Shown here in pieces: positions 28,761-57,021 of a stretch of 64,000 bases of DNA. How positions within the stretch are numbered: position 1 is the stretch's first letter; the number at the start of each line of letters is the position of its first letter. A model generated the notes under the pieces. That model was not told the origin of the DNA and ran no database searches. It worked only from the letters and a program-made list of their open reading frames with translations. The translations under genes and the position numbers were made by a program. This DNA is from Puniceicoccaceae bacterium (GTDB lineage Bacteria > Verrucomicrobiota > Verrucomicrobiia > Opitutales > Coraliomargaritaceae). The DNA is taken from the NCBI GenBank assembly GCA_017854655.1, contig JAFMHF010000003.1, positions 645 to 64,644 of the forward strand. The letters run 5' to 3'.

Positions 28761-29558
28761 CTATTGCGACAGCTTCAAAATACGGAGTGCTCCGCGCATT
28801 ACGAATCCGAACACGATTCCACCCACTAGGAGGTCAGGCCATGGGCTCCCCAGCCAGTATACGAGCAGACCTGCCGTGATTACGCCTCCGTTGACGATGA
28901 TGTCGTTCGAGGTAAAAATCGCGGACGCCTGCATATGGGCCTCCTCCGACCGGGCTTTTTGAATCAACCAGAGGCAGACCACATTGGCTACTAGAGCTAC
29001 AGCAGCCACGATGATCATCGTCTTGAAGTCCGGCATTGTCTCTGAATAGAAAAACCGGCGGATCACCTCCGAAAAGCCGACGAGTGCTAATAGCATTTGG
29101 AGAAGTCCACTAATTTTCGCGACCTTCTTCTTGGTCGCTACTGCAGTGCCTACAGCCATTAAACTCAATGCGTAGACGATGGCGTCGGCTAGCATGTCGA
29201 GCGAGTCTGCGATCAGGCCCATCGAGTTCGAAAACAAGCCAAAGCCCATTTCGATAACGAAGAAAGCAGCATTGATGCCGAGCACCCACCACAGAATGCG
29301 TTTTTGAGTATCTCGATTTTCGGTCGTATCTGTTTCTACCTCCTCGGAGGTCTCTAATCGTGATCCCAATCCCAATTCTGAAAGCGCCTTCGAGATTGGC
29401 TCCACATCGCCACGATGGACGACACTGACCATACGTTCTTGGATGTTTACTGATATGCATAGGACGGCCTCAAGTCCTTCCATCTTGAGCCGAATCATTT
29501 GCTCCTCCGAGGTACAGTCCAATTTTTCGACGTGGTAGCTGGATTTAAACAAAGACAT
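28761..29558 (-). CDS. Cation diffusion facilitator with N-terminal HMA-like domain and no C-terminal cytoplasmic domain
   Basis: YHVEKLDCTSEEQMIR HMA-like start; TM motifs LIADSLDMLADA and HMQASAIFTSND; WPDL in the last helices. Confidence 0.85.
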   Translation of the reverse strand: MSLFKSSYHVEKLDCTSEEQMIRLKMEGLEAVLCISVNIQERMVSVVHRGDVEPISKALSELGLGSRLETSEEVETDTTENRDTQKRILWWVLGINAAFFVIEMGFGLFSNSMGLIADSLDMLADAIVYALSLMAVGTAVATKKKVAKISGLLQMLLALVGFSEVIRRFFYSETMPDFKTMIIVAAVALVANVVCLWLIQKARSEEAHMQASAIFTSNDIIVNGGVITAGLLVYWLGSPWPDLLVGGIVFGFVMRGALRILKLSQ

Positions 29559-32500
29559 TACATTTGAGTTTCGTCACCTTGGCCATCGTTGCGACCGCCA
29601 AACAACTCGTAGAGCAGTGGAAGAACCAACAGCGTCAATAAAGTCGAAGTCAGAATGCCGCCGACAACGACAGAGGCCAAAGGTCGCTGAATCTCCGAAC
29701 CGACTCCAGTAGACACGGCCATGGGCAAGAATCCTGCAGCGGAGGTCAAAGCCGTTGCTAATACGGGACGCAGGCGTTGGCAGGCAGCTTGTGTGACTGC
29801 CTCACGCATATCTGCCGTGCGTTCGCGATAAGACCGGATCGCTGAAATCAGAATTTGACCATTCAGGACGGCGATACCGCTCAAGGCAATAAAGCCGACG
29901 GCTGCACTCACACTAAAAGGGATGCCTCTAAACCAGAGAGTAAGGATGCCCCCAATGAGGGCGAGTGGGATGCCGCTGTAGATGAGCAATACGTCACGCA
30001 TATCTTTCAAGCTGAAGTAGAGCAGGAAGAAGACAGCCGCAAGCGTCACGGGCACTACGATGGCGAGGCGTGTCTGAGCGCGTTCGAGGTTCTCAAACTG
30101 GCCACCCCAATCGAGCACATAGCCCTCGGGCAGTTCCAATGATTCGTTAATCTTCTCTTTCGCCTCGGCGACGAATGAGGAAACGTCACGGTCATCTACA
30201 TTGACCTGCACACGAATCAAGCGTCGTCCCCATTCGCGGTTGATCGTGGCAGAGCCATCTTCAATCCGAATGTCGGCGAGTCTGTGTAGTGGTAATTGCT
30301 GCCCTTCGGCTGTAGGGATGATTGTATTACGCAATGCTTCCATGTCAGTTCGCAATGCATCCGGCAGGCGCAGCACGAGGGGAAAGTTGCGTTGTCCCTC
30401 AAACACTTGTCCAGCTCGGGTGCCACCGATGGACTCTACAATACTCATCACATGATGCGTGGAGATACCATGCTGTGCGATCACGTCCTGGTTGATGTCG
30501 ATCTTCAGCGTCGGCTGTCCGGTCAACTGATCGACGGAGATGTCCCCATGCCCTTCGACATCAAGCAGAATACGCTGCACCTGGTCACTCAGTCGCACAA
30601 GTTCGTCAAAATCGTCGCCGTAGATCTTGATACCTACGTCGGAACGGATGCCGGATTCCATCTCATTGAGTCGCATCTCAATCGGTTGGGTAAAGGCCAT
30701 GTTTAAGCCTGGTAGCTCGGCAACAGACGCTTGCATAGCCGCCACTAGCTCAGATTGACTTTTGGCTTTGGTCCACTGTTCCCGAGGATGCAAGGAGACG
30801 AAAATATCTGTCAGTTCTGTTCCCATCGGATCGGTGGCTACTTCCGCCGAGCCGATACGGCTCCAGATGTGACGAATCTCATCGGGGTAGTTTTCCAATA
30901 AGAGTTGTTCAATACGTGTATTGTATTTGACCGACTCAGGAATCGAAACCCCGGCGAGGCGAATCGTATTGATGGTGATGGCACCCTCGCTAAGACGGGG
31001 CACAAATTCGCCGCCCATTTTCGCGCCGACCCATAGCGTCAGCGCGAACACGATGGCTACCGTCGCCAAAACATATGTGCGGGCACGCATCGCAAACCGC
31101 AAACTCGCAGTATATGCCTTAGTTAATGCTCCCGCAATACCGCCCCCTTCTTCTTTAGCACTGGGCTTGATGAAATAGTAATTGAGGATCGGAGTGACAG
31201 TTAGCGCATAAATCAGCGCCCCAGCCAATGCGAAGATGAAGGTGAGAGCCATCGGGCGGAACATCTTACCTTCAGTTCCTTCGAGCGTCAGTATCGGAAA
31301 AAATACTACGATAGTGATACCCATTCCGAAGATCACGGGGCGTGCCACTTCCTTGGCTGAACTGATGACGATCTCCAAGCGTTCTGCCTTTGTGAGGGGG
31401 CGTCCGAGTTCGATGCGTCGCTGCCCCAGCTTACGCATGTTCGATTCGGTCATGACGACAGAGCCATCCACAATCATACCGAAATCGACCGCGCCGAGGC
31501 TCAACAAGCTGGCGGCGATGCCAAAGTAACTCATGCCGAACGCAGAGAAGAGCATGGATATCGGGATCACTGAAGCGACCAAAAGGCCCGCCCTAAAGTT
31601 TCCCAACAGAGCAAAGAGAATCGCCACAACAAGAATGGCTCCCGCAGCGAGATTGTGTTGAACTGTGCCGATTACCTGACTGGTGAGCTCTGTGCGATCA
31701 TAGACGATATTAACGACCACATCTTCAGGCAGCGAGCGTCGGAGGCTGTCTAAACGTATCTTGAGTTCTTCGGTCACAACCTTGCCGTTTTCACCCATCA
31801 ACATAAATGCCAGACCGAGCACGACTTCACCTTGGCCTTGTGCGGAGACAGCACCTCTACGAATTTCGTAGCCGATCTTTACCTCGTCCGCTACATCTCT
31901 GACACGTAGCGGACTGCCGCCATAGGAAGCGATGACGATATTCTCGATCTCTTCAATCGACTCCACGCGACCAAGGCCGTGAATCAGCAGCGACTGACCA
32001 CCTCGGGTGAGAATGCCGCCGCCTGCGTTGCTGTTATTCGCCTGCAATGCTTCAGACACCTCGTCGAGAGTGAGCCCGAACTTTACCAAGTTTTGCGGCG
32101 AGACGATCACATGATACTGGCGCTCGTAGCCGCCCCAGGAGTTGACCTCGGCGACTCCGGAGACTTTTCGCAACTCAGGCTTAATCACCCAGTCATGCAA
32201 GGTTCGCAACTCCTCTAGAGAACGATCAGGGGCGGTGGAGCTGAGTGTATAGTGAAAGATCTCACCCAGTCCGGTCGAGATCGGCCCGAGTTGGGGGCGT
32301 TCGATTTCTTCCGGTAGTTCAACTGTGGACAGCCGTTCGGATATATACTGCCTTGCTTCTGAAATCTCCGTGGCATCCGAGAATGTCGCGACGACTTGTG
32401 AAAATCCGAACTTTGAAACCGAGCGAACGCTTTCCAGTCCTGGCAATCCGCCCATCGCTAGCTCGACGGGTAAGGTGATCTGTTGTTCGATCTCCTCTGG

Positions 32501-32668
32501 ATTCAATGCAGGTGCGACCGTGTTGATCTGCACTTGGACAGGCGTCGTGTCCGGAAAGGCATCGACAGGCAGCTGGAACAGTTTCCATGAGCCAAGACCG
32601 ATGAAGATAGCTGAGAGCAGCAGAACCAGTAAACGGTTTTGCAGAGAGAGTTTAGAAAGTGATTCCAT
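29558..32668 (-). CDS. czcA: CzcA-type heavy-metal RND permease (divalent-cation type)
   Basis: LPVDAFPD, AVDFGMIVDGSVVMTE, EGKMFRPMA, RLNEMESGIRSD, RLRPVL, EIQRPLASVV; the CusA methionine triad is not evident. Confidence 0.9.
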   Translation of the reverse strand: MESLSKLSLQNRLLVLLLSAIFIGLGSWKLFQLPVDAFPDTTPVQVQINTVAPALNPEEIEQQITLPVELAMGGLPGLESVRSVSKFGFSQVVATFSDATEISEARQYISERLSTVELPEEIERPQLGPISTGLGEIFHYTLSSTAPDRSLEELRTLHDWVIKPELRKVSGVAEVNSWGGYERQYHVIVSPQNLVKFGLTLDEVSEALQANNSNAGGGILTRGGQSLLIHGLGRVESIEEIENIVIASYGGSPLRVRDVADEVKIGYEIRRGAVSAQGQGEVVLGLAFMLMGENGKVVTEELKIRLDSLRRSLPEDVVVNIVYDRTELTSQVIGTVQHNLAAGAILVVAILFALLGNFRAGLLVASVIPISMLFSAFGMSYFGIAASLLSLGAVDFGMIVDGSVVMTESNMRKLGQRRIELGRPLTKAERLEIVISSAKEVARPVIFGMGITIVVFFPILTLEGTEGKMFRPMALTFIFALAGALIYALTVTPILNYYFIKPSAKEEGGGIAGALTKAYTASLRFAMRARTYVLATVAIVFALTLWVGAKMGGEFVPRLSEGAITINTIRLAGVSIPESVKYNTRIEQLLLENYPDEIRHIWSRIGSAEVATDPMGTELTDIFVSLHPREQWTKAKSQSELVAAMQASVAELPGLNMAFTQPIEMRLNEMESGIRSDVGIKIYGDDFDELVRLSDQVQRILLDVEGHGDISVDQLTGQPTLKIDINQDVIAQHGISTHHVMSIVESIGGTRAGQVFEGQRNFPLVLRLPDALRTDMEALRNTIIPTAEGQQLPLHRLADIRIEDGSATINREWGRRLIRVQVNVDDRDVSSFVAEAKEKINESLELPEGYVLDWGGQFENLERAQTRLAIVVPVTLAAVFFLLYFSLKDMRDVLLIYSGIPLALIGGILTLWFRGIPFSVSAAVGFIALSGIAVLNGQILISAIRSYRERTADMREAVTQAACQRLRPVLATALTSAAGFLPMAVSTGVGSEIQRPLASVVVGGILTSTLLTLLVLPLLYELFGGRNDGQGDETQM

Positions 32669-32689
32669 TTTAAATGAGCAGCAAAAGGT

Positions 32690-34552
32690 TTAATCGTCGA
32701 CGCAACCTGCGCCCAAACGTGATTTAAGAAATTCCGACATGGCAATGAAGGCACCTTCAGTCACGACGAGTTCGTTCGCTCCAAGGCCTTCAGTCACGGC
32801 AACCGTATCGTTCCCGGATTGTCCGAGACTCACGTGGCGCAATGCGTAAAGGTCAGGCGCTTCTTTAACAAAAACATAGGGCCTGCCTTCATGATGCTGG
32901 ATTGCATCTCGCGGCAGTAAAACAGCGTTTCCCGCGCCTGTTAGGACTAGTTCAGCATGCCCGAACATGCCTTGCCGTATGACTCCATCCGGGTTTTGTA
33001 TTTCAGCACGAGCTTTTAGCATTCGGTTGCGCGGGTCGATTGCTGAGTCCACCCAAGTGATGACCCCTGTATATTTGATGTCTTTGGCACCGCCGTCTAG
33101 ACGTGCCGTTAATATCTGCCCGACTTGAACAGAATCGGCATACTCAGGGCTTACTGATAAATCCAGCCAGAGGGTCGATAAATCGGTCACTTTGAACAGT
33201 GCTTTTCCTTCGGATACAGCTTCCCCGGTAACAGCTTCACGTGCAACTAGCGTCCCCGCGAATGGCGCACGTAATTTGATGGTGGAGCTGCTGTCTTGCT
33301 CTTCGGCGATTTGTGCAATTTCTCCATCGGAGAACCCCAGATTGAGGAGTTTTTGACGAGCCATTTTACTCTTCAACTGGGCTACTTCATGAGCTGCTTC
33401 AGCCTCAAGAAAATCACGGGCAGCTGAAATCTTTTCCTCTTTCAACTTCTTTTCGCGCTGATACGCCAACTCTGCGATACGTTCGTCTACTTGTCGGGTG
33501 AGAAACTCTGCCTTAGCCTCTGCTACTTCGTCGGAACTGATCTCGACAAGCACATCTCCTTTTTTGACGGACTGCCCCACGTCCGCATGGACGGTGCGAA
33601 CGATCCCATCGGCGAGAGGTGTCACGAGTGCCAACTTGTTGCGGTTGTAGCTCACTTCGAAGAAAGCCGAGACTGTTGGCTGCGCAAGACCCTCTGTCGG
33701 ATGTGTGGTAACAATACCTGCTTTAGATGAGGACTCGGCAGAAGCAAAGCGAACTTTCACACTTTTGCCCGGTGCTAGCTGGCCGGCGAGTTGAGGCTGA
33801 CAAATGCCACATTCCAATTCGGCAACATCATGCTCCTTACACCAGAGCACTGGGGCATCGGACTGTCCTTTAGAACCTTGCTGCGTGCCATGATCCGCCC
33901 GAGCCGGGTCGCAGTAGAAACATTCGTCCTCGTAGAGGCTGTGCTCTTCGCACCAAAGCCGATCCTTATCTTCCAACTGTGGTTGGCAAATCCAGCAACG
34001 ATCTTCGTAGCGGTCGTGTCCATTGCACCAGAGCCGTCCTGCTTCCCTTTTTGATGGGTCGCAGATATAGCAGAGGTCAACAGATACATCGTGGGCTTCG
34101 CAGACTTCGGAAGAGAGTGAAGGACTTGCTTGTGGAGATGTCGAAGAAGCTGCTTCTGAAGCATTTTGTTTCTCGGCTATTTCTGGATGACAATAAAAGC
34201 ACTCGTCCTCATAGAGGCTGTGCTCTTCACACCAAAGCCGATCCTTGTCTTCCAATTGTGGCTGGCAGATCCAGCAACGATCTTCGTAGCGGTCGTGTCC
34301 ATTGCACCACAGTCGTCCTGCTTCCCTTTTTGATGGATCACAGATATAACAGAGGTCAGCAGATACTCCATGAGCTTCGCAAAGTGCTGTAGCTTTCGGA
34401 GCCACGTCTGTTTCGCAGCTTGAACAATCTTCGGCGTTCTCAGGACTGGCGGTTTTTTTCGAATCCGTGTCGGCGAGTAGTGAGTTTGAGGCGTAGACAA
34501 GTGCAATCGCGAGTAGCGCGGTGCATCCAAATATATTGATGAGTTTTTTCAT
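32690..34552 (-). CDS. RND periplasmic adaptor (CzcB-like) with N-terminal duplicated Cys/His-rich repeats
   Basis: Signal peptide, CEAHxVxxDLCYICDP...WCEEHSLYEDECFYC twice, then an MFP body (LRAPFAG, LWLDL, RQGMFG, VTEGL). Confidence 0.9.
   Translation of the reverse strand: MKKLINIFGCTALLAIALVYASNSLLADTDSKKTASPENAEDCSSCETDVAPKATALCEAHGVSADLCYICDPSKREAGRLWCNGHDRYEDRCWICQPQLEDKDRLWCEEHSLYEDECFYCHPEIAEKQNASEAASSTSPQASPSLSSEVCEAHDVSVDLCYICDPSKREAGRLWCNGHDRYEDRCWICQPQLEDKDRLWCEEHSLYEDECFYCDPARADHGTQQGSKGQSDAPVLWCKEHDVAELECGICQPQLAGQLAPGKSVKVRFASAESSSKAGIVTTHPTEGLAQPTVSAFFEVSYNRNKLALVTPLADGIVRTVHADVGQSVKKGDVLVEISSDEVAEAKAEFLTRQVDERIAELAYQREKKLKEEKISAARDFLEAEAAHEVAQLKSKMARQKLLNLGFSDGEIAQIAEEQDSSSTIKLRAPFAGTLVAREAVTGEAVSEGKALFKVTDLSTLWLDLSVSPEYADSVQVGQILTARLDGGAKDIKYTGVITWVDSAIDPRNRMLKARAEIQNPDGVIRQGMFGHAELVLTGAGNAVLLPRDAIQHHEGRPYVFVKEAPDLYALRHVSLGQSGNDTVAVTEGLGANELVVTEGAFIAMSEFLKSRLGAGCVDD
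33912..34381. repeat. Intragenic direct duplication of ~190 nt (33912-34102 and 34191-34381; offset 279 nt = 93 codons)
   Basis: Two near-identical blocks are visible in the DNA, with mostly third-position differences. Confidence 0.9.
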
Positions 34553-34573: not shown

Positions 34574-35941
34574 TTAAAATTTTTCGTATTCGTTGTTCTC
34601 ATTCGAATTGATCTCTGAAAGCGGACGTCCAGCTAAGGCTTCCAGTTCGAAGAAGGCTTTGTTGTATTCGACCAGCGTCTCTGTGTGTCGGATGCGTGCT
34701 TCGGCAAACATCCGTTGTGCGTCGATGACTTCCAGATAACTGGCTTTGCCTTCCTGATACGCACGCCAGGTCTTTTCCTGCACGCTTTGAGATGAGCTTA
34801 AAAGGTTCCGTTCGATGTTCTCCACTTCATCACGCAGGAACTCCAGCTTTCGATGGGTGCTCGTCAACGCGACTAAGGCGTTGATACGGATTGCTCGTGA
34901 GTTTTCATGTGCTTTGCCGAGTTCTTCTCGCGCCTTTCGAATATTACCTTGGTTCCGGTCGAAGAGCGGAAGCGGCACACTGAATTGAACGACGCCGGAT
35001 AGGTTATCGTCCCCGTTGAAGTGTTTGAGTCCGACACCCACGGTCAGATCTGGAATCGCCTTTGACTCTTCAAGAGCAACAACCTGGCGGTGTTGTTCGA
35101 GGAGTGCCGCCCAGCGAAGCATCTCGGGATGACGCTCTAAGGTTTGCTTCAAAGATAGCTGCGTCGGCAGCTGTATTGATTGTCGTAACTTTCCGGACAC
35201 GTGGGAGAACTTAGGATCGTCGCTGCCGTAGAGTTCGGCGAGTTGACGCCTTGCTGCATCCAACTTCCGTTCGGCTTGCCGTGCACTGATTTCTTCAGAT
35301 GCCAAGACAGACTGGGCCTTGAGCTGTTCGAGTGGAGAAGCTTCACCGCTTTCTACCCGCGTTTTCGCTCCATCGAGCGCTTCCGATGCCAGCTTAGCGT
35401 TTTTCTGAAGTAACTCCAATTGCTCCTGAGCCGCTAATACTGAGATAAATGCCTTAGAGACTTCCGTAAGCAGAAGCATACGGGCTTGTTCGTAAGCGAA
35501 TCGACTCACGTCTTCGCTCAACTTTGCAGTCTTTACTCGATGTTTGCGCTTCCCCCCCAATTCAAGCAACTGGCTCAGTAGCACGGTTGATTCCGCATTG
35601 TCGAAACCTGACGTCTCGTCGGAGCCACCGAACTCCTCCGCTTCGACCTCCAGTTCAGGATTTGGAAGGAGTCCTGACTGAAGTGTCTCAGCTTCAGCAA
35701 TCCGGATGTCGATTGCGTATCCCGCTAGTCTAGGGCTGTTGACCAGCGCGTAAGAGTAAGCTTTCCGAAGAGTCAATTCGCCCTGAGGTTCGCCGACGTG
35801 TGGCGGATCAATTGTATTCGCCTGCGCGGCTGAGAGTGTGCCCGCAGCGAAGGAGCAGATCGCAAAGGCAATAGTAAATGGTTTATAGTAGATACATGCG
35901 CGAGTGGGCATGCTTTGTTTACGTTTTGAAAATAGGTGCAT
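34574..35941 (-). CDS. TolC/CzcC-family outer-membrane factor
   Basis: PNPELEV, LELGGKR, PDLTVGVG, VPLPLFDRNQG, YQEGKASYLEVIDAQR. Confidence 0.9.
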   Translation of the reverse strand: MHLFSKRKQSMPTRACIYYKPFTIAFAICSFAAGTLSAAQANTIDPPHVGEPQGELTLRKAYSYALVNSPRLAGYAIDIRIAEAETLQSGLLPNPELEVEAEEFGGSDETSGFDNAESTVLLSQLLELGGKRKHRVKTAKLSEDVSRFAYEQARMLLLTEVSKAFISVLAAQEQLELLQKNAKLASEALDGAKTRVESGEASPLEQLKAQSVLASEEISARQAERKLDAARRQLAELYGSDDPKFSHVSGKLRQSIQLPTQLSLKQTLERHPEMLRWAALLEQHRQVVALEESKAIPDLTVGVGLKHFNGDDNLSGVVQFSVPLPLFDRNQGNIRKAREELGKAHENSRAIRINALVALTSTHRKLEFLRDEVENIERNLLSSSQSVQEKTWRAYQEGKASYLEVIDAQRMFAEARIRHTETLVEYNKAFFELEALAGRPLSEINSNENNEYEKF

Positions 35942-36045
35942 AAAAAATCCTGATAGAAGTTAAATACTGCGAATCCACAGAAGGTGGTTTGCGCAGTGGA
36001 GGTGCCCTCAACGAGAGGGCCTAACCAACTAACTTTATCAGAATA
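35942..36045 (-). promoter_or_regulatory. Structured 104-nt spacer; stop-proximal arm (36030-36043) pairs with the tolC SD region (35948-35962)
   Basis: mRNA UUCUGAUAAAGUUA is complementary to UAACUUCUAUCAGGA (one bulge, one G-U); the AGGA sits 6 nt before ATG; two internal hairpins. Confidence 0.6.
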
Positions 36046-36465
36046 TCAGAGACGCAGATTTACGGTCTGCGCGACGAGCACACACGTGTCCATCAACTCC
36101 GGCGGTGCCTGAGCCTGAACAATGTGAGCAATTTCTTTTAACGTAAAATTCGGTGCGGAGACATCGGATCCCGCAGATTGAAGTGCAGTCAAAGTCGGAA
36201 TGGATTCTCCTTTGTCGATGCACACTTGCGGTAGTTCGACTGCTTTAAGTTCAAGGTCCACACAGGAGTCTTCGTCTGAGAAACGACGCTCCTCAGCTAG
36301 TCCGCTAACACACACAGGCGGACAGTCAGAGCATTTGGCGGAGCTCAACTCGGGAGAGAGGTCCGAGCTTTTGTTAAGACACAGCAACAGTCCTCCGACG
36401 CCACCAAAGAGGACGTTCCAAGCAAACAAGCTCAAGAGAGCAACTGCTGTTATTTTGCGTTTCAC
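36046..36465 (-). CDS. CzcI-like exported Cys-rich leader protein with QAPP motif
   Basis: Hydrophobic N-terminus, CSDC, QAPP plus 17 residues ending LRL; first gene of the czcCBA-like operon. Confidence 0.65.
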   Translation of the reverse strand: MKRKITAVALLSLFAWNVLFGGVGGLLLCLNKSSDLSPELSSAKCSDCPPVCVSGLAEERRFSDEDSCVDLELKAVELPQVCIDKGESIPTLTALQSAGSDVSAPNFTLKEIAHIVQAQAPPELMDTCVLVAQTVNLRL

Positions 36466-36710
36466 TGATTTAACTAGTTCGCCGATAGATCATTTAAGTC
36501 AAGGCTTTGCATTTAATTTTTCACCGATGTTTCTTTGAGTGAGCTGTCTAGGGGGTATATTTACCACACTAGTCGATCATTACAGCTTAACAGATTCATA
36601 TACCAACCGCGTGTTACTCCAGTTGGTATTTGTTCGGGTGAGTTAATCATATTGTTTTGGGAATAATAAATGTTTGTATCATTCTTACCTATTAAGTAAT
36701 CCACTGAGAA

Positions 36711-37097
36711 ATGTTTTCTAACTTCATTCATCTGCTGATGGCGCTCGCCATCTTTAATCCGTTCTGCTGTTGCACGGCGGCGGGTTTGTTTGCGGATGAT
36801 TCTGGAGTGGCAGCGATTCCGAGTTGCTGTGAGAGCACTGGCGATCAGCAGAGTTCGCAAGATCAGCATGATCCAGAGAATTGTCCGCACAAAGCTTTAG
36901 ATGACTTCGAAATTACATCTAATAAGGAGGCGGGCACTCACAACTCCACGCTTTCGCTACTTCCAGTGCTTTTTGTTGTTCGCGACTTGCTGGTCTATGA
37001 ACCAGTTGTCGAATTAATTCATCCCAAGGTGCTAGAGTCAGTGCTTGGGTCCCCACCTGTTTCGTTATCACAGGTGTATTGTGTCTATAGGATCTGA
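36711..37097 (+). CDS. CzcI-like exported Cys/His-rich leader protein with GSPP motif
   Basis: Hydrophobic N-terminus, CCC/CC/CPH, GSPP plus 12 residues ending YRI; first gene of the cus-like operon. Confidence 0.65.
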   Translation: MFSNFIHLLMALAIFNPFCCCTAAGLFADDSGVAAIPSCCESTGDQQSSQDQHDPENCPHKALDDFEITSNKEAGTHNSTLSLLPVLFVVRDLLVYEPVVELIHPKVLESVLGSPPVSLSQVYCVYRI

Positions 37098-37198
37098 TTG
37101 ATCCGTGTTGTTAACGTGCCGCTTTTGTGCGGCGCATCCATGCCACGTCCTATTCGGGATGACAGGCTTTTGAGCAATTACCGAATCAATCATGATCT
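37091..37198 (+). promoter_or_regulatory. Structured spacer; GATCTGATTGAT (37091-37102, over the stop codon) pairs with ATCAATCATGATC (37185-37197) next to the tolC ATG
   Basis: 12-bp complementarity with one bulge, seen directly; internal hairpin GTGCCGC-TTTTGT-GCGGCGC. Confidence 0.6.
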
Positions 37199-38461
37199 AT
37201 GTATACAAAACACTTTTTTAAGGGTGCCTATCGTGGCACTCAACTAAGCCTTCTATTGGGGCTATCCATTTCAATCGCATATGCGGAGAGTCTGAGTCTC
37301 GACCAAGCGCTTGCACGGGCGGAGTCGAAAAATCCTAGCTTAGAGGCTTTTCGTGAAAGTCGCCTGAGTGCAACGGAGCGCGTTGGCGCTTCGAATGCCT
37401 TGCCGAATCCGAAACTACAAGTTTCCTATTTCGGTGAGTCCGTGGAGACACGAACAGGTTCGCAAGAGGCCATCTATTCGTTTAGCCAGACGGTGCCCTG
37501 GCTGAGTAAGCTCTCTACGCGTAAAGATATCGCCTTGAGTGATGCCAACATGAGTGGCTTTGCCTATGAGCACGCTTTGGCCCAGCTTCAAAGGGAGGTA
37601 ACCATTACTTATGTCGAGCTACTTTATTTGAAGAACTCGGTCATAACGACAGAGCAGAACTTAGGGCTCATACAGGACATGCGTTCTATCGTAGAGGAGC
37701 AAGTCAGCGGCGGGGCTTCGGTTAATTCCATGCTTCGTCTGGAGCTGGAGTATGAGCGAAAGCGAGATGATCTGGATAAACTCGAACAGGAGCGAATCGA
37801 ACAACGCCATCGATTAGCTGCCTTGCTTGCGATGCCAGAAGCTCAGCTCTCTTTAGCTGGTGAACTAGAAGGGGTTGGGCCGTCAGTAGACAACGCAAGC
37901 TCGTTCCATCGGAAACTAGTTGAAAATAACCCTGAGCTGCTGGCTCTACGTCAAAGTAGCATTCGAGCTAGCCAGCAAGCGGAGTTGAGCCGATTGGCAC
38001 GTCGTCCTGATTTCACGGTGGGGCTGAACTACATTCAAGTCGATGGCAGCGGTATCGCGGCGCGAGATGCAGGCAAGGATCCATGGAATGTCTCTTTGGC
38101 CGTCAGTCTCCCGATTTGGGCGGGGAAGGATCGTGCCAACATACGTGCGACCAAGGCAAACAGGCGTTCTGTAGACAGCTCCTACCTCAATAGAGAGTTG
38201 GCACTAAAGGCCGAGCTGAGTGCAACGCTGGCGTCCTTTCAGGATAGCGCGAGGCGTATGCAACGCTACGAGGAGACGCTGATCCCGCTGGCGGACCAAG
38301 CTTTGGATAATTCGAGAGCCGCCTACGAGAGCGACCAGCTCAGTGCTCTGGAAATGATCGATAGCGAGCGCTCCTTGCTCGAACTGAAACTGAACTACTG
38401 GCGAGCCGCCGCAAACGCGCGTCAAGCGGTCGCCAAAATCAACGCCCTGATCGGCGAATAA
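37199..38461 (+). CDS. TolC/CusC-family outer-membrane factor
   Basis: LPNPKL, QTVPWLSKL, RPDFTVGLNY, VSLPIW, LEMIDSER. Confidence 0.88.
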   Translation: MYTKHFFKGAYRGTQLSLLLGLSISIAYAESLSLDQALARAESKNPSLEAFRESRLSATERVGASNALPNPKLQVSYFGESVETRTGSQEAIYSFSQTVPWLSKLSTRKDIALSDANMSGFAYEHALAQLQREVTITYVELLYLKNSVITTEQNLGLIQDMRSIVEEQVSGGASVNSMLRLELEYERKRDDLDKLEQERIEQRHRLAALLAMPEAQLSLAGELEGVGPSVDNASSFHRKLVENNPELLALRQSSIRASQQAELSRLARRPDFTVGLNYIQVDGSGIAARDAGKDPWNVSLAVSLPIWAGKDRANIRATKANRRSVDSSYLNRELALKAELSATLASFQDSARRMQRYEETLIPLADQALDNSRAAYESDQLSALEMIDSERSLLELKLNYWRAAANARQAVAKINALIGE

Positions 38462-53052: not shown

Positions 53053-53150
53053 GAAAAAACCTGTTTAGTTGAAATCGTCATAAGACACGTTCGAACGTGC
53101 CAAAGTCACACGAAGGAAATCCTACGTGCATATTTCACTAATCAGGTTTT
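53053..53150 (-). promoter_or_regulatory. Structured 96-nt spacer; arm over the stop codon (53132-53150) pairs with the tolC initiation region (53056-53075)
   Basis: mRNA AAAACCUGAUUAGUGAAAU is complementary to AUUUCAACUAAACAGGUUUU (one mismatch, one bulge); internal palindrome CACGTTCGAACGTG. Confidence 0.65.
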
Positions 53151-53607
53151 AAATTCGGAGCACTGTCGTGCGCACACACTGCTCTAATGTGCCACAGAAA
53201 ATGGGTGGCGCTCGTGTCGCTAAACGTATCTGAGGAGCCGCGTTTGCTTTAATGATCGGAACAAATAGCTGATACGAGTGGTTTGCGGCTACTGGTTTCT
53301 TAATCGAAATAAAATCAGCGACTCGCTGTATCGGCTCATTCGATGAGCTGATCAAAATGTCGATGCAGTGTTGGTCACTAACTGCAGAAAGGCCATCATC
53401 TGCTTCGCCGGAATGGGAATCGTGATTGTGTGATTCCGTCTCATGTCCATGGCATGTGTCACCATGATCAGAGTGTTGCCCCGTGAGCACATGACCAAAA
53501 TTATGATCATGCAGGCACAGCACCGCCCCACCAGCAGTAGCTAGTAGGCCGTTCATTGCCATCATCAGGGTAAGGCAATATGCTGTGTATTTTTTTAACA
53601 TGAACAA
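53149..53607 (-). CDS. CzcI-like exported His/Cys-rich leader protein with RAPP motif
   Basis: Hydrophobic N-terminus, LCLHDH and His-rich middle, TRAPP plus 17 residues ending LRI; first gene of the third RND operon. Confidence 0.7.
   Translation of the reverse strand: MFMLKKYTAYCLTLMMAMNGLLATAGGAVLCLHDHNFGHVLTGQHSDHGDTCHGHETESHNHDSHSGEADDGLSAVSDQHCIDILISSSNEPIQRVADFISIKKPVAANHSYQLFVPIIKANAAPQIRLATRAPPIFCGTLEQCVRTTVLRI

Positions 53608-55224: not shown

Positions 55225-57021
<1,797 letters not shown>

Follow-up and report, generated by a model that had tools for sequence, protein, structure and literature searches.

We analysed a window of 64,000 nucleotides (nt) from a Puniceicoccaceae bacterium (Verrucomicrobiota; Opitutales; assembly GCA_017854655.1, contig JAFMHF010000003.1), in which a metal-efflux locus, called Locus 1 hereafter, lies on the minus strand, as do all of its features given below. 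The locus begins with an upstream open reading frame (uORF; 36046..36465) that starts with GTG and stops with UGA (36046..36048). According to the list of open reading frames (ORFs), to its translation and to its homologues, this uORF encodes a signal-anchored, cysteine-rich protein of 139 amino acids. It is followed, after a spacer of 104 nt, by the putatively regulated gene, which encodes an outer-membrane efflux protein (OEP; 34574..35941; Pfam OEP, 2.5e-44) and has its AUG start codon at 35939-35941. This OEP is CzcC/IhpA-like, its top NCBIfam match being IhpA (1.8e-65, under the curated cut-off), and its gene is designated czcC below.

The original prediction for this DNA described the beginning of the locus as a QAPP leader followed by a stem that hides a Shine-Dalgarno (SD) sequence. 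QAPP is indeed an arrest-type motif (PMC10987492), but it belongs to a 139-codon ORF for a signal-anchored protein and not to a short peptide. Between the two genes, sequences just past the uORF stop codon and just before the czcC start codon form a helix that covaries across a large protein family and keeps a fixed position relative to both codons. With moderate confidence, we propose that Locus 1 is a differently wired member of the CutF/CruR kind of nascent-chain sensor modules, arrest being a gate located upstream and translation termination being the event that opens the ribosome-binding site (RBS) of the pump genes. Production of the pump would thus probably require that ribosomes complete the uORF.

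The helix between the uORF stop codon and the czcC start codon

Folding and the family alignment place the 5' arm of the closing helix, or anti-RBS arm (UUCUGAUAAAGUUA, with UCCUGAU in relatives), at 36030..36043, the stop codon lying 2 nt 5' of it. The 3' arm (UAACUUCUAUCAGGA; 35948..35962) contains an SD-like AGGA (35948-35951) and is separated from the AUG by a tract of six U residues (35942..35947). The helix encloses two hairpins, GCCCUC-UCGUU-GAGGGC (hairpin 1; 36004..36020) and CUGCGC...CCAC-loop-GUGG...CGCAG (hairpin 2; 35967..35996), while another one, the tail hairpin GCGCAGA-CCGUAAA-UCUGCGU (36052..36072), is located in the last uORF codons. All four elements are present in the unconstrained minimum free energy (MFE) and centroid folds of 35925-36110, the closing helix being of about 14-16 base pairs. 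The fold reaches -60.1 kcal/mol (z = -3.25), and none of 200 shuffled sequences was as stable. Furthermore, RNAalifold recovered the structure of Locus 1 from 13 distinct orthologous loci. The pairing predicted earlier, in which nucleotides 36043-36030 after the TGA face 35962-35948 and the AGGA lies 6 nt before the ATG, is therefore confirmed by its coordinates, by the MFE and centroid folds and by covariation in the family. Both enclosed hairpins had also been predicted, and they appear in the MFE, centroid and RNAalifold structures alike.

The tail hairpin, which belonged to the same prediction, was found in the folds, but its conservation is limited to the QAPP clade. In this clade, its arms are invariant at synonymous sites whereas its loop varies. 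Family-wide, its signal is not significant (mean z of -0.44 versus -0.15 in control windows, p=0.08).

Among the 13 loci of the QAPP clade, both arms of the closing helix are invariant (consensus UAUCCUGAUAAAGUUA / UAACUUCUAUCAGGAUUUUUYAUG). The window copy carries a single C-to-U change in this helix, which yields a G.U pair. Two pairs of hairpin 1 show compensatory changes (C-G to U-A and to G-C), and hairpin 2 is retained in all orthologs by means of one-sided (G-U) changes. In the consensus structure of the orthologs, the UGA stop codon pairs with U(C/U)A, the A of which is the first base of the czcC AUG. The region 36030-36051 also contains CUGAUA twice in tandem (cuCUGAUAuuCUGAUAaag; CUCUGAUAUCCUGAUA in orthologs). 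Hence, the 3' arm UAUCAGGA has two possible pairing registers, one of which takes in the stop codon.

The same design was found far beyond the close orthologs. We examined 21 loci of the wider family that come from different genera and were retrieved by protein similarity, not by RNA motif. Their shared 5' part consists of the stop codon, 0-4 nt, (A)UCCUGAU with a locus-specific extension, and one to three variable G+C-rich hairpins. Their shared 3' part consists of the complementary extension followed by AUCAGGA, then 5-8 mostly U residues and the AUG. The anti-RBS core begins 0-4 nt past the stop codon in all 21 loci. An AGG or AGA lies 5-8 nt 5' of the AUG in every one of them, and 19 have the full AGGA (the others being L003 with CAGGU and L017 with AGAA). 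Compensatory double changes affect four core positions (-1, 4, 6 and 7). For instance, L002, L013 and L059 have UCCUAAU/AUUAGGA, and the pairs UCCUGAA/UUCAGGA and GUUCC/GGAAC are also encountered. Moreover, duplexes between cognate arms have a mean energy of -19.97 kcal/mol versus -15.01 kcal/mol for non-cognate arms, a difference that none of 10000 permutations reached. Three spacings are fixed in the family: from the Cys motif to PP, from PP to the stop codon and from the stop codon to the anti-RBS arm.

Intergenic regions often fold, and the invariance of the arms among close orthologs means that these loci alone provide no covariation for the closing helix. Nevertheless, it is extremely improbable that the structure is incidental, or is a remnant of a repeat or mobile element devoid of regulatory role. 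The covariation across the family, the cognate-arm test and the fixed registers to stop and start codons all argue against it, as does the restriction of the motif pair to efflux loci in the window genome. Besides, no repeat match was found, and Rfam gave none at a permissive threshold for 35800-37300.

Two other explanations of the spacer were tried and rejected. A dispersed repeat, such as a miniature inverted-repeat transposable element, was discarded as the origin of the arms: elsewhere in the genome, the exact pair of arm motifs occurs only at a paralogous efflux locus on contig C115. Read-through of the UGA to produce a fusion protein was judged unlikely, the open frames being attributed to chance. 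The uORF frame of the window copy remains open for about 88 codons past the UGA (35700-36048), but it is broken by indels in orthologs, and no more than 8 of the 21 loci have an OEP frame without a stop codon across the spacer. Separately, one relative (L026, in genome G094) has a G+C-rich spacer of 316 nt without UCCUGAU at the stop codon, while AAUCAGGAU is still found before the AUG. An insertion may have uncoupled the module in this relative.

The proline motif, the tail and the position of the ribosome

The candidate arrest peptide, N106-FTLKEIAHIVQAQAPP-122, is encoded by 36100..36150 and ends with the QAPP motif, the codons of which are at 36100-36111. P121 and P122 are invariant in 38 orthologs, and the first residue of the motif is Q in 37 of them and R (thus RAPP) in the remaining one. 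In 145 representatives of the family, we counted 56 RAPP, 27 RGPP, 3 QAPP and 2 QGPP, giving R[AG]PP as consensus. A codon alignment of the 13 distinct orthologous loci shows amino acid variation at only 2 of the 17 positions from N106 to P122, although 62% of their codons vary synonymously, whereas the amino acid varies at 75 of the first 105 positions. This pattern indicates that N106-P122 is under purifying selection at the peptide level, and this is exactly the stretch that would occupy the exit tunnel of a ribosome positioned at the prolines.

Fujiwara et al. (2024) defined an 'RQH family' of RAPP-like arrest motifs (PMC10987492). The uORF product has the features of this family, namely a C-terminal [R/Q/H][A/G]PP and an N-terminal localisation signal. 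In another uORF, QAPP stalls ribosomes and replacement of the Q by A weakens the arrest (PMC10987492). However, most of the RAPP-like motifs of ordinary proteins do not stall ribosomes (PMC10987492). Therefore, arrest at the QAPP of Locus 1 in the verrucomicrobial host is regarded here as plausible.

Between PP and the stop codon, the protein has a tail of 17 residues (ELMDTCVLVAQTVNLRL; 36049..36099), the length and ending of which are conserved. Tails of 17 residues were found in 84 of 111 representatives. The last residues are the best-conserved part of the family, and the ending TVxLR[ILV] is retained even by members that have no PP. For instance, three relatives (L027, L060 and L061) have lost PP but have kept a tail ending in ...VLR[LV] and UCCUGAU after the stop codon, and L027 also has the matching AAUCAGGAU 5' of its AUG. 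The retention of helix and tail by members lacking PP suggests that the core device is an opening coupled to termination, to which arrest was added as a gate. In addition, the stop codon is UGA in 20 of the 21 family loci, versus 18.8% of the long ORFs of the window genome, in which UGA is the rarest stop codon. The tail and the UGA could possibly serve programmed slow termination or, as regards the tail, act as a C-terminal degron.

The effect of ribosomes on the helix was modelled by partition-function folding, the ribosome being represented by blocked nucleotides. This was done for 10 loci, 9 of which have AGGA. In the free mRNA, the modelled probability that AGGA is unpaired was 0.00-0.02 in 8 of these 9 loci. 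It was again 0.00-0.02 in 8 of the 9 when the P site of the ribosome was placed on the first Pro codon, the RBS being closed in 9 of the 10 loci overall. Seven of the 9 loci with AGGA reached 0.18-0.70, and only when the ribosome was placed on the stop codon. The size of the ribosome footprint on mRNA is well established. When the stop codon is in the A site, the anti-RBS core UCCUGAU extends over approximately +9 to +15, counted from the first base in the P site, which is inside the mRNA channel and helicase zone of the ribosome.

These results bear on the switch that the original prediction implied, in which a stall at QAPP would itself melt the stem and expose the SD. This is the published logic of CutF, SecM and uDF_RQH, and the motif, the export signal and the SD-shielding stem that it requires are all found at Locus 1. 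However, QAPP lies 18 codons (54 nt) 5' of the stop codon and 56 nt from the 5' arm, and the modelled RBS stays at 0.00-0.02 in 9 of the 10 loci with the ribosome on PP. Furthermore, we found no conserved alternative pairing of the tail-coding RNA with either arm, and a tail of 16-18 codons is a constant of the family. Such a SecM/CutF-type switch thus fits poorly and is very unlikely here. Since a stalled ribosome appears unable to open the helix, this would have to be done by the ribosomes that complete the uORF, and arrest could act only upstream, by gating their flux.

The uORF protein family and its genomic setting

The uORF protein starts with KRK and a hydrophobic stretch of about 25 residues, which is predicted to be an export signal or a transmembrane (TM) segment with its N-terminus inside. 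This signal-anchor/TM helix (residues 2-30; 36376..36462) ends with LLLC29-L-(H/N)31. It is one of the best-conserved parts of the ortholog alignment, and AlphaFold2 (AF2) predicts a helix at residues 2-22 with a pLDDT of about 90. In an alignment of 110 family sequences, C29 and H31 are near-invariant. The predicted metal-ligand motif (C-x-x-)C-x-D is represented by C68-V-D70 (36256..36264), located 53 residues N-terminal of the first Pro. Both C68 and D70 are invariant in the alignments, and the distance from Cys to PP is 52-56 residues in 98 of 108 representatives. With the 110-sequence alignment as input, AF2 gave a low-confidence model (pLDDT 67.7, pTM 0.30) that contains only the TM helix and strands 25-31 and 68-74, the rest being mostly coil. 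These two strands may pair, which would bring C29/H31 beside C68/D70.

This protein has 48 homologues with 53-99% identity, all being of 116-153 amino acids or fragments, that were found in marine metagenomes and in genomes of Opitutales and Coraliomargarita. A profile search against 1.84 billion representatives retrieved 393 clusters (50% identity, mostly Opitutales) at E<=1e-3. The family was detected in 20 of 401 sampled genomes of the phylum, 17 of which belong to the same order as the window, with up to five copies per genome. Its hallmarks are, from N- to C-terminus, a K/R-rich beginning, a hydrophobic helix of ~25 residues ending with LLLC-L-H, another His, (C-x-x-)C-x-D-x-E, 52-56 poorly conserved residues, [R/Q][A/G]PP and a tail of 16-18 residues ending with TVxLR[ILV], followed by UGA. 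The uORF protein has no Pfam or NCBIfam match. Locus 1 is thus the founding example of a family that has neither Pfam coverage nor informative annotation.

Such a protein might also be a functional, CzcI-like part of the efflux machinery in the membrane or periplasm, its gene and czcC being joined by plain translational coupling. PP would then be merely structural and nothing would be sensed. CzcI, the gene of which precedes czcCBA, has no Pro motif (PMC9973294), the family members without PP keep helix and C-terminal tail, and the best-conserved parts, the N-terminal TM segment and the extreme C-terminus, are those expected of a mature protein with partners. We nevertheless consider this quite unlikely. 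About 60% of the representatives have an exact R[AG]PP, the spacing of which to the Cys motif and to the stop codon is fixed, and strong peptide-level selection acts on the 17 residues that end with PP. Besides, AF2 predicts no globular domain for this protein, the model being mostly coil.

The remainder of the operon (28761..34552) consists of genes for a CzcB-type adaptor (32690-34552; PF16576, TIGR01730 above cut-off), for an RND pump of the CusA/CzcA family (29558-32668; PF00873, TIGR00914 with 1156.7 bits for a cut-off of 701) and, at its end, for a cation diffusion facilitator (CDF; 28761-29558). Hence, the earlier label of a czc-type operon proved right: the OEP (PF02321), the adaptor and the permease of an HME-RND system of the CzcCBA type are encoded together, along with the CDF transporter. 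More generally, the gene downstream of the uORF encodes an OEP in all 10 family loci tested.

Upstream of the uORF, the -35-like TTGACT (36497..36502) is kept in the ortholog upstream alignment, CTTGACT being common ~38 nt 5' of the GTG/ATG start. A scan for sigma-70 promoters gave no full consensus match. TTGACT may be a promoter element of the uORF, and its conserved position suggests a transcript with a very short 5' leader or none. Loci 1 and 2 diverge around a region of 245 bp (36466-36710).

The window genome carries at least four copies of the uORF family, each before an OEP gene. Their motifs are QAPP (Locus 1), GSPP (36711-37097), RAPP (53149-53607) and RGPP (on contig C115). Two relatives (G223:C78 and G015:C74) have two near-identical QAPP-type uORFs on the same contig, 8-14 kb apart, which implies duplicated efflux modules. 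In the window, a large serine recombinase (55225-57021) flanks a block of three efflux operons (28.7-54 kb), and this block is probably a mobile metal-resistance island. No two-component, MerR, ArsR or other metal-responsive transcription factor was found among the scanned genes of the operons of Loci 1-3 and the large ORFs of 54-61 kb, which fits a self-contained post-transcriptional control. If the model below is true, it would explain how metal-resistance islands can be regulated after horizontal transfer without transcription factors.

A proposed termination-opened switch and its relatives

In the proposed module, the uORF protein would be inserted co-translationally through its N-terminal signal anchor, exposing the Cys ligands (C29, C45/48/52 and C68-x-D70) to the periplasm. 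With the ribosome at Q119-A-P-P122, C-x-D would be ~53 residues back, a distance that roughly matches the exit tunnel and the translocon taken together, and the ribosome would arrest at that point on the RAPP-type motif. Independently of arrest, 14-16 nt beginning 2 nt past the stop codon would pair with the AGGA stretch that ends 6 nt before the czcC AUG. This closing helix would seal a three-way junction, hiding the ribosome-binding region, and the fold would keep stop and start codons side by side. Only a ribosome with its A site on the UGA would cover the anti-RBS core UCCUGAU and unzip the helix, so that translation of czcC would be coupled to completion of the uORF. Arrest at QAPP would then be an upstream gate, or brake, on the number of ribosomes that arrive. 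In the most likely logic, as reported for CruR, binding of metal or folding at the translocon exit would free the arrest and turn the pump on. Since the downstream gene encodes an exporter, release of the arrest by metal is the sensible sign. We infer arrest in the host organism, metal as the signal and the sign of the response. The three fixed spacings make this an unusually explicit and testable wiring diagram.

Several observations weigh against this model. In two loci (L029 and L057), the freed RBS re-pairs elsewhere in the folding model. L029 never opens, the modelled probability that its RBS is unpaired being 0.25-0.26 with the ribosome on PP. Moreover, of the two Cys of the CxxC typical of the family, the first has been lost in the clade of Locus 1, and His31 is replaced by Asn in the window copy. 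With these losses, the uORF protein of the window might sense less well.

It is also uncertain what AGGA does. Upstream of 288 unambiguous starts of the window genome, we detected no SD enrichment: AGGA is found near 3.1% of the starts versus 4.2% of control windows, and the mean anti-SD duplex energy is -0.38 near starts versus -1.6 in controls. The leaders upstream of starts are G-poor and A/U-rich, and AGGA before efflux OEP genes is exceptional in this respect. The 3' end of the 16S rRNA is the canonical GGAUCACCUCC in three complete genomes of the same order, and it is absent from the metagenome-assembled genome of the window. The predicted occlusion of the start region thus stands, whereas the role of AGGA as an SD is no more than plausible. 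As the genome makes no general use of SD sequences, RBS occlusion is the safer description.

The U-tract raises another difficulty. A run of at least four U residues immediately follows the helix in 18 of the 21 family loci, versus 4.9% of the 288 genome starts, which suggests that the output may consist partly or wholly of transcription termination. According to this explanation, the helix and the six U residues form an intrinsic terminator just ahead of the start codon of czcC, a ribosome that has reached the uORF stop codon acts as antiterminator, and a ribosome held at QAPP lets the terminator form, RBS occlusion being secondary. Two G-C pairs are among those beside the U-tract, the 5' arm adjoins the stop codon as in ribosome-mediated attenuators, and the UGAUAU before this arm can pair weakly with the U-tract. 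However, the helix closes a junction of two hairpins, of about 75 nt, instead of a loop of 3-8 nt, and a scan for consensus terminators did not call it. The U-tract itself is short (4-6 nt), and some loci have degenerate versions of it (UUUCAC, UUUCAA). In addition, a U-rich unstructured stretch before the AUG would also suit initiation in an organism that does not rely on SD sequences. We regard attenuation as unlikely to be the main device, with the reservation that it would have the same sign as the termination-opened switch and is compatible with it.

Finally, a brake located at QAPP explains neither the conservation of the 17-residue tail nor the preference for UGA. Both would find a role in a switch with two checkpoints, in which metal releases the RAPP/QAPP brake, the tail and the UGA prolong termination over the anti-RBS arm, and the helix with its U-tract is also a terminator controlled by the ribosome. 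Such a switch, in which arrest means OFF and termination means ON, would be the inverse of SecM, CutF, TnaC and the other known arrest-peptide switches. We put it forward as a tentative and rather doubtful elaboration.

The switch that we favour, with gating by arrest and opening by termination, has its closest parallels among metal sensors. CutF of Rhodobacter capsulatus (cutFOG) has a CxxxC motif, a C-terminal PPP and a stem-loop masking the cutO SD (PMC9973294; bioRxiv 10.1101/2025.02.05.636593). Likewise, Locus 1 encodes a small exported protein with a Cys motif and a Pro motif just 5' of a metal-homeostasis gene, and an intergenic stem-loop hides the downstream RBS. However, the PPP of CutF is C-terminal and its Cu-induced stalling melts the stem, whereas the motif of Locus 1 is followed by 17 residues and the terminating ribosome alone would open the helix. 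OEP genes of RND pumps are the commonest neighbours of CutF-like proteins (Ozturk et al. 2023, PMC9973294), so that the general genomic pattern was already known. That survey required PP within the last 15 residues (PMC9973294). Locus 1 passes its other filters (139 amino acids, signal anchor, spacer of 104 nt) but has 17 residues after PP. The whole family is therefore excluded from the published survey.

CruR (Bp2923) of Bordetella pertussis, a DUF2946 protein, consists of an export signal, CXXC, 45 intervening residues and RAPP, and Cu relieves its arrest (PMC9426467). It shares with Locus 1 the export signal, ligands at a conserved distance from a RAPP-type motif and the first place in a metal-related operon, and its metal-relieved arrest has the sign that we propose. 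However, its RAPP is 3 residues from the stop codon, whereas the family of Locus 1 has a tail of 17 residues and about 50 intervening residues instead of 45. Furthermore, CruR switches an importer off through Rho-dependent termination, whereas Locus 1 has an RBS-occluding helix before an exporter.

The two families also differ in sequence. The Locus 1 protein does not match the DUF2946 hidden Markov model (PF11162, gathering score of 23.7 bits) even at E<=10, its RAPP paralogue at 53 kb scores 12 bits (E=0.37), and none of 110 family members matches at E<=0.01. When the profile of the 110 family sequences was compared by hhalign with 13 DUF2946 proteins of Verrucomicrobiota, only 21 columns were aligned, all in the N-terminal TM segment. 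In true DUF2946 proteins of the phylum, PP is followed by 1-6 residues, versus 16-18 in the family of Locus 1. The spacing from Cys to the arrest motif is tight in both, with 45 +/- 2 intervening residues in DUF2946 proteins and about 50 in the Locus 1 family (52-56 from Cys to first Pro).

SecM, ApdA/ApdP and uA_RQH_Myxococcales likewise combine an [R/Q/H][A/G]PP near the C-terminus of a uORF, an N-terminal localisation signal and a stem containing the downstream SD (PMC10987492). Translating ribosomes open such stems transiently, and a premature stop codon abolishes the opening (PMC10987492). In contrast to Locus 1, which precedes the gene of a metal-efflux OEP, RQH peptides monitor Sec or YidC and precede secA, secDF or yidC. 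Moreover, their arrest site abuts the stem and arrest means ON, whereas the arrest site of Locus 1 is remote from the stem.

Opening by upstream translation has an older counterpart in the 'Min Jou' interaction between the coat and replicase cistrons of phage MS2, in which the downstream RBS is paired with upstream sequence and is opened only by ribosomes on the upstream cistron. Locus 1 differs in that its masking arm lies just past the end of the upstream ORF, in the region that a terminating ribosome covers, and in having an arrest motif and an exported sensor domain. As for CzcI of Cupriavidus metallidurans, its gene is also that of a small exported protein directly 5' of czcC, and CzcI was grouped with CutF-like proteins, a role in regulation as a metal sensor having been suggested for it (PMC9973294), but it lacks the C-terminal Pro motif of the Locus 1 protein.

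Only two experimental prototypes of arrest-peptide sensors that read metal at the translocon are known, CutF and CruR, and they are of opposite sign. If our model is true, Locus 1 would be an example of one sensor design being converted from 'stall = ON' to 'stall = OFF' through the addition of a short tail.

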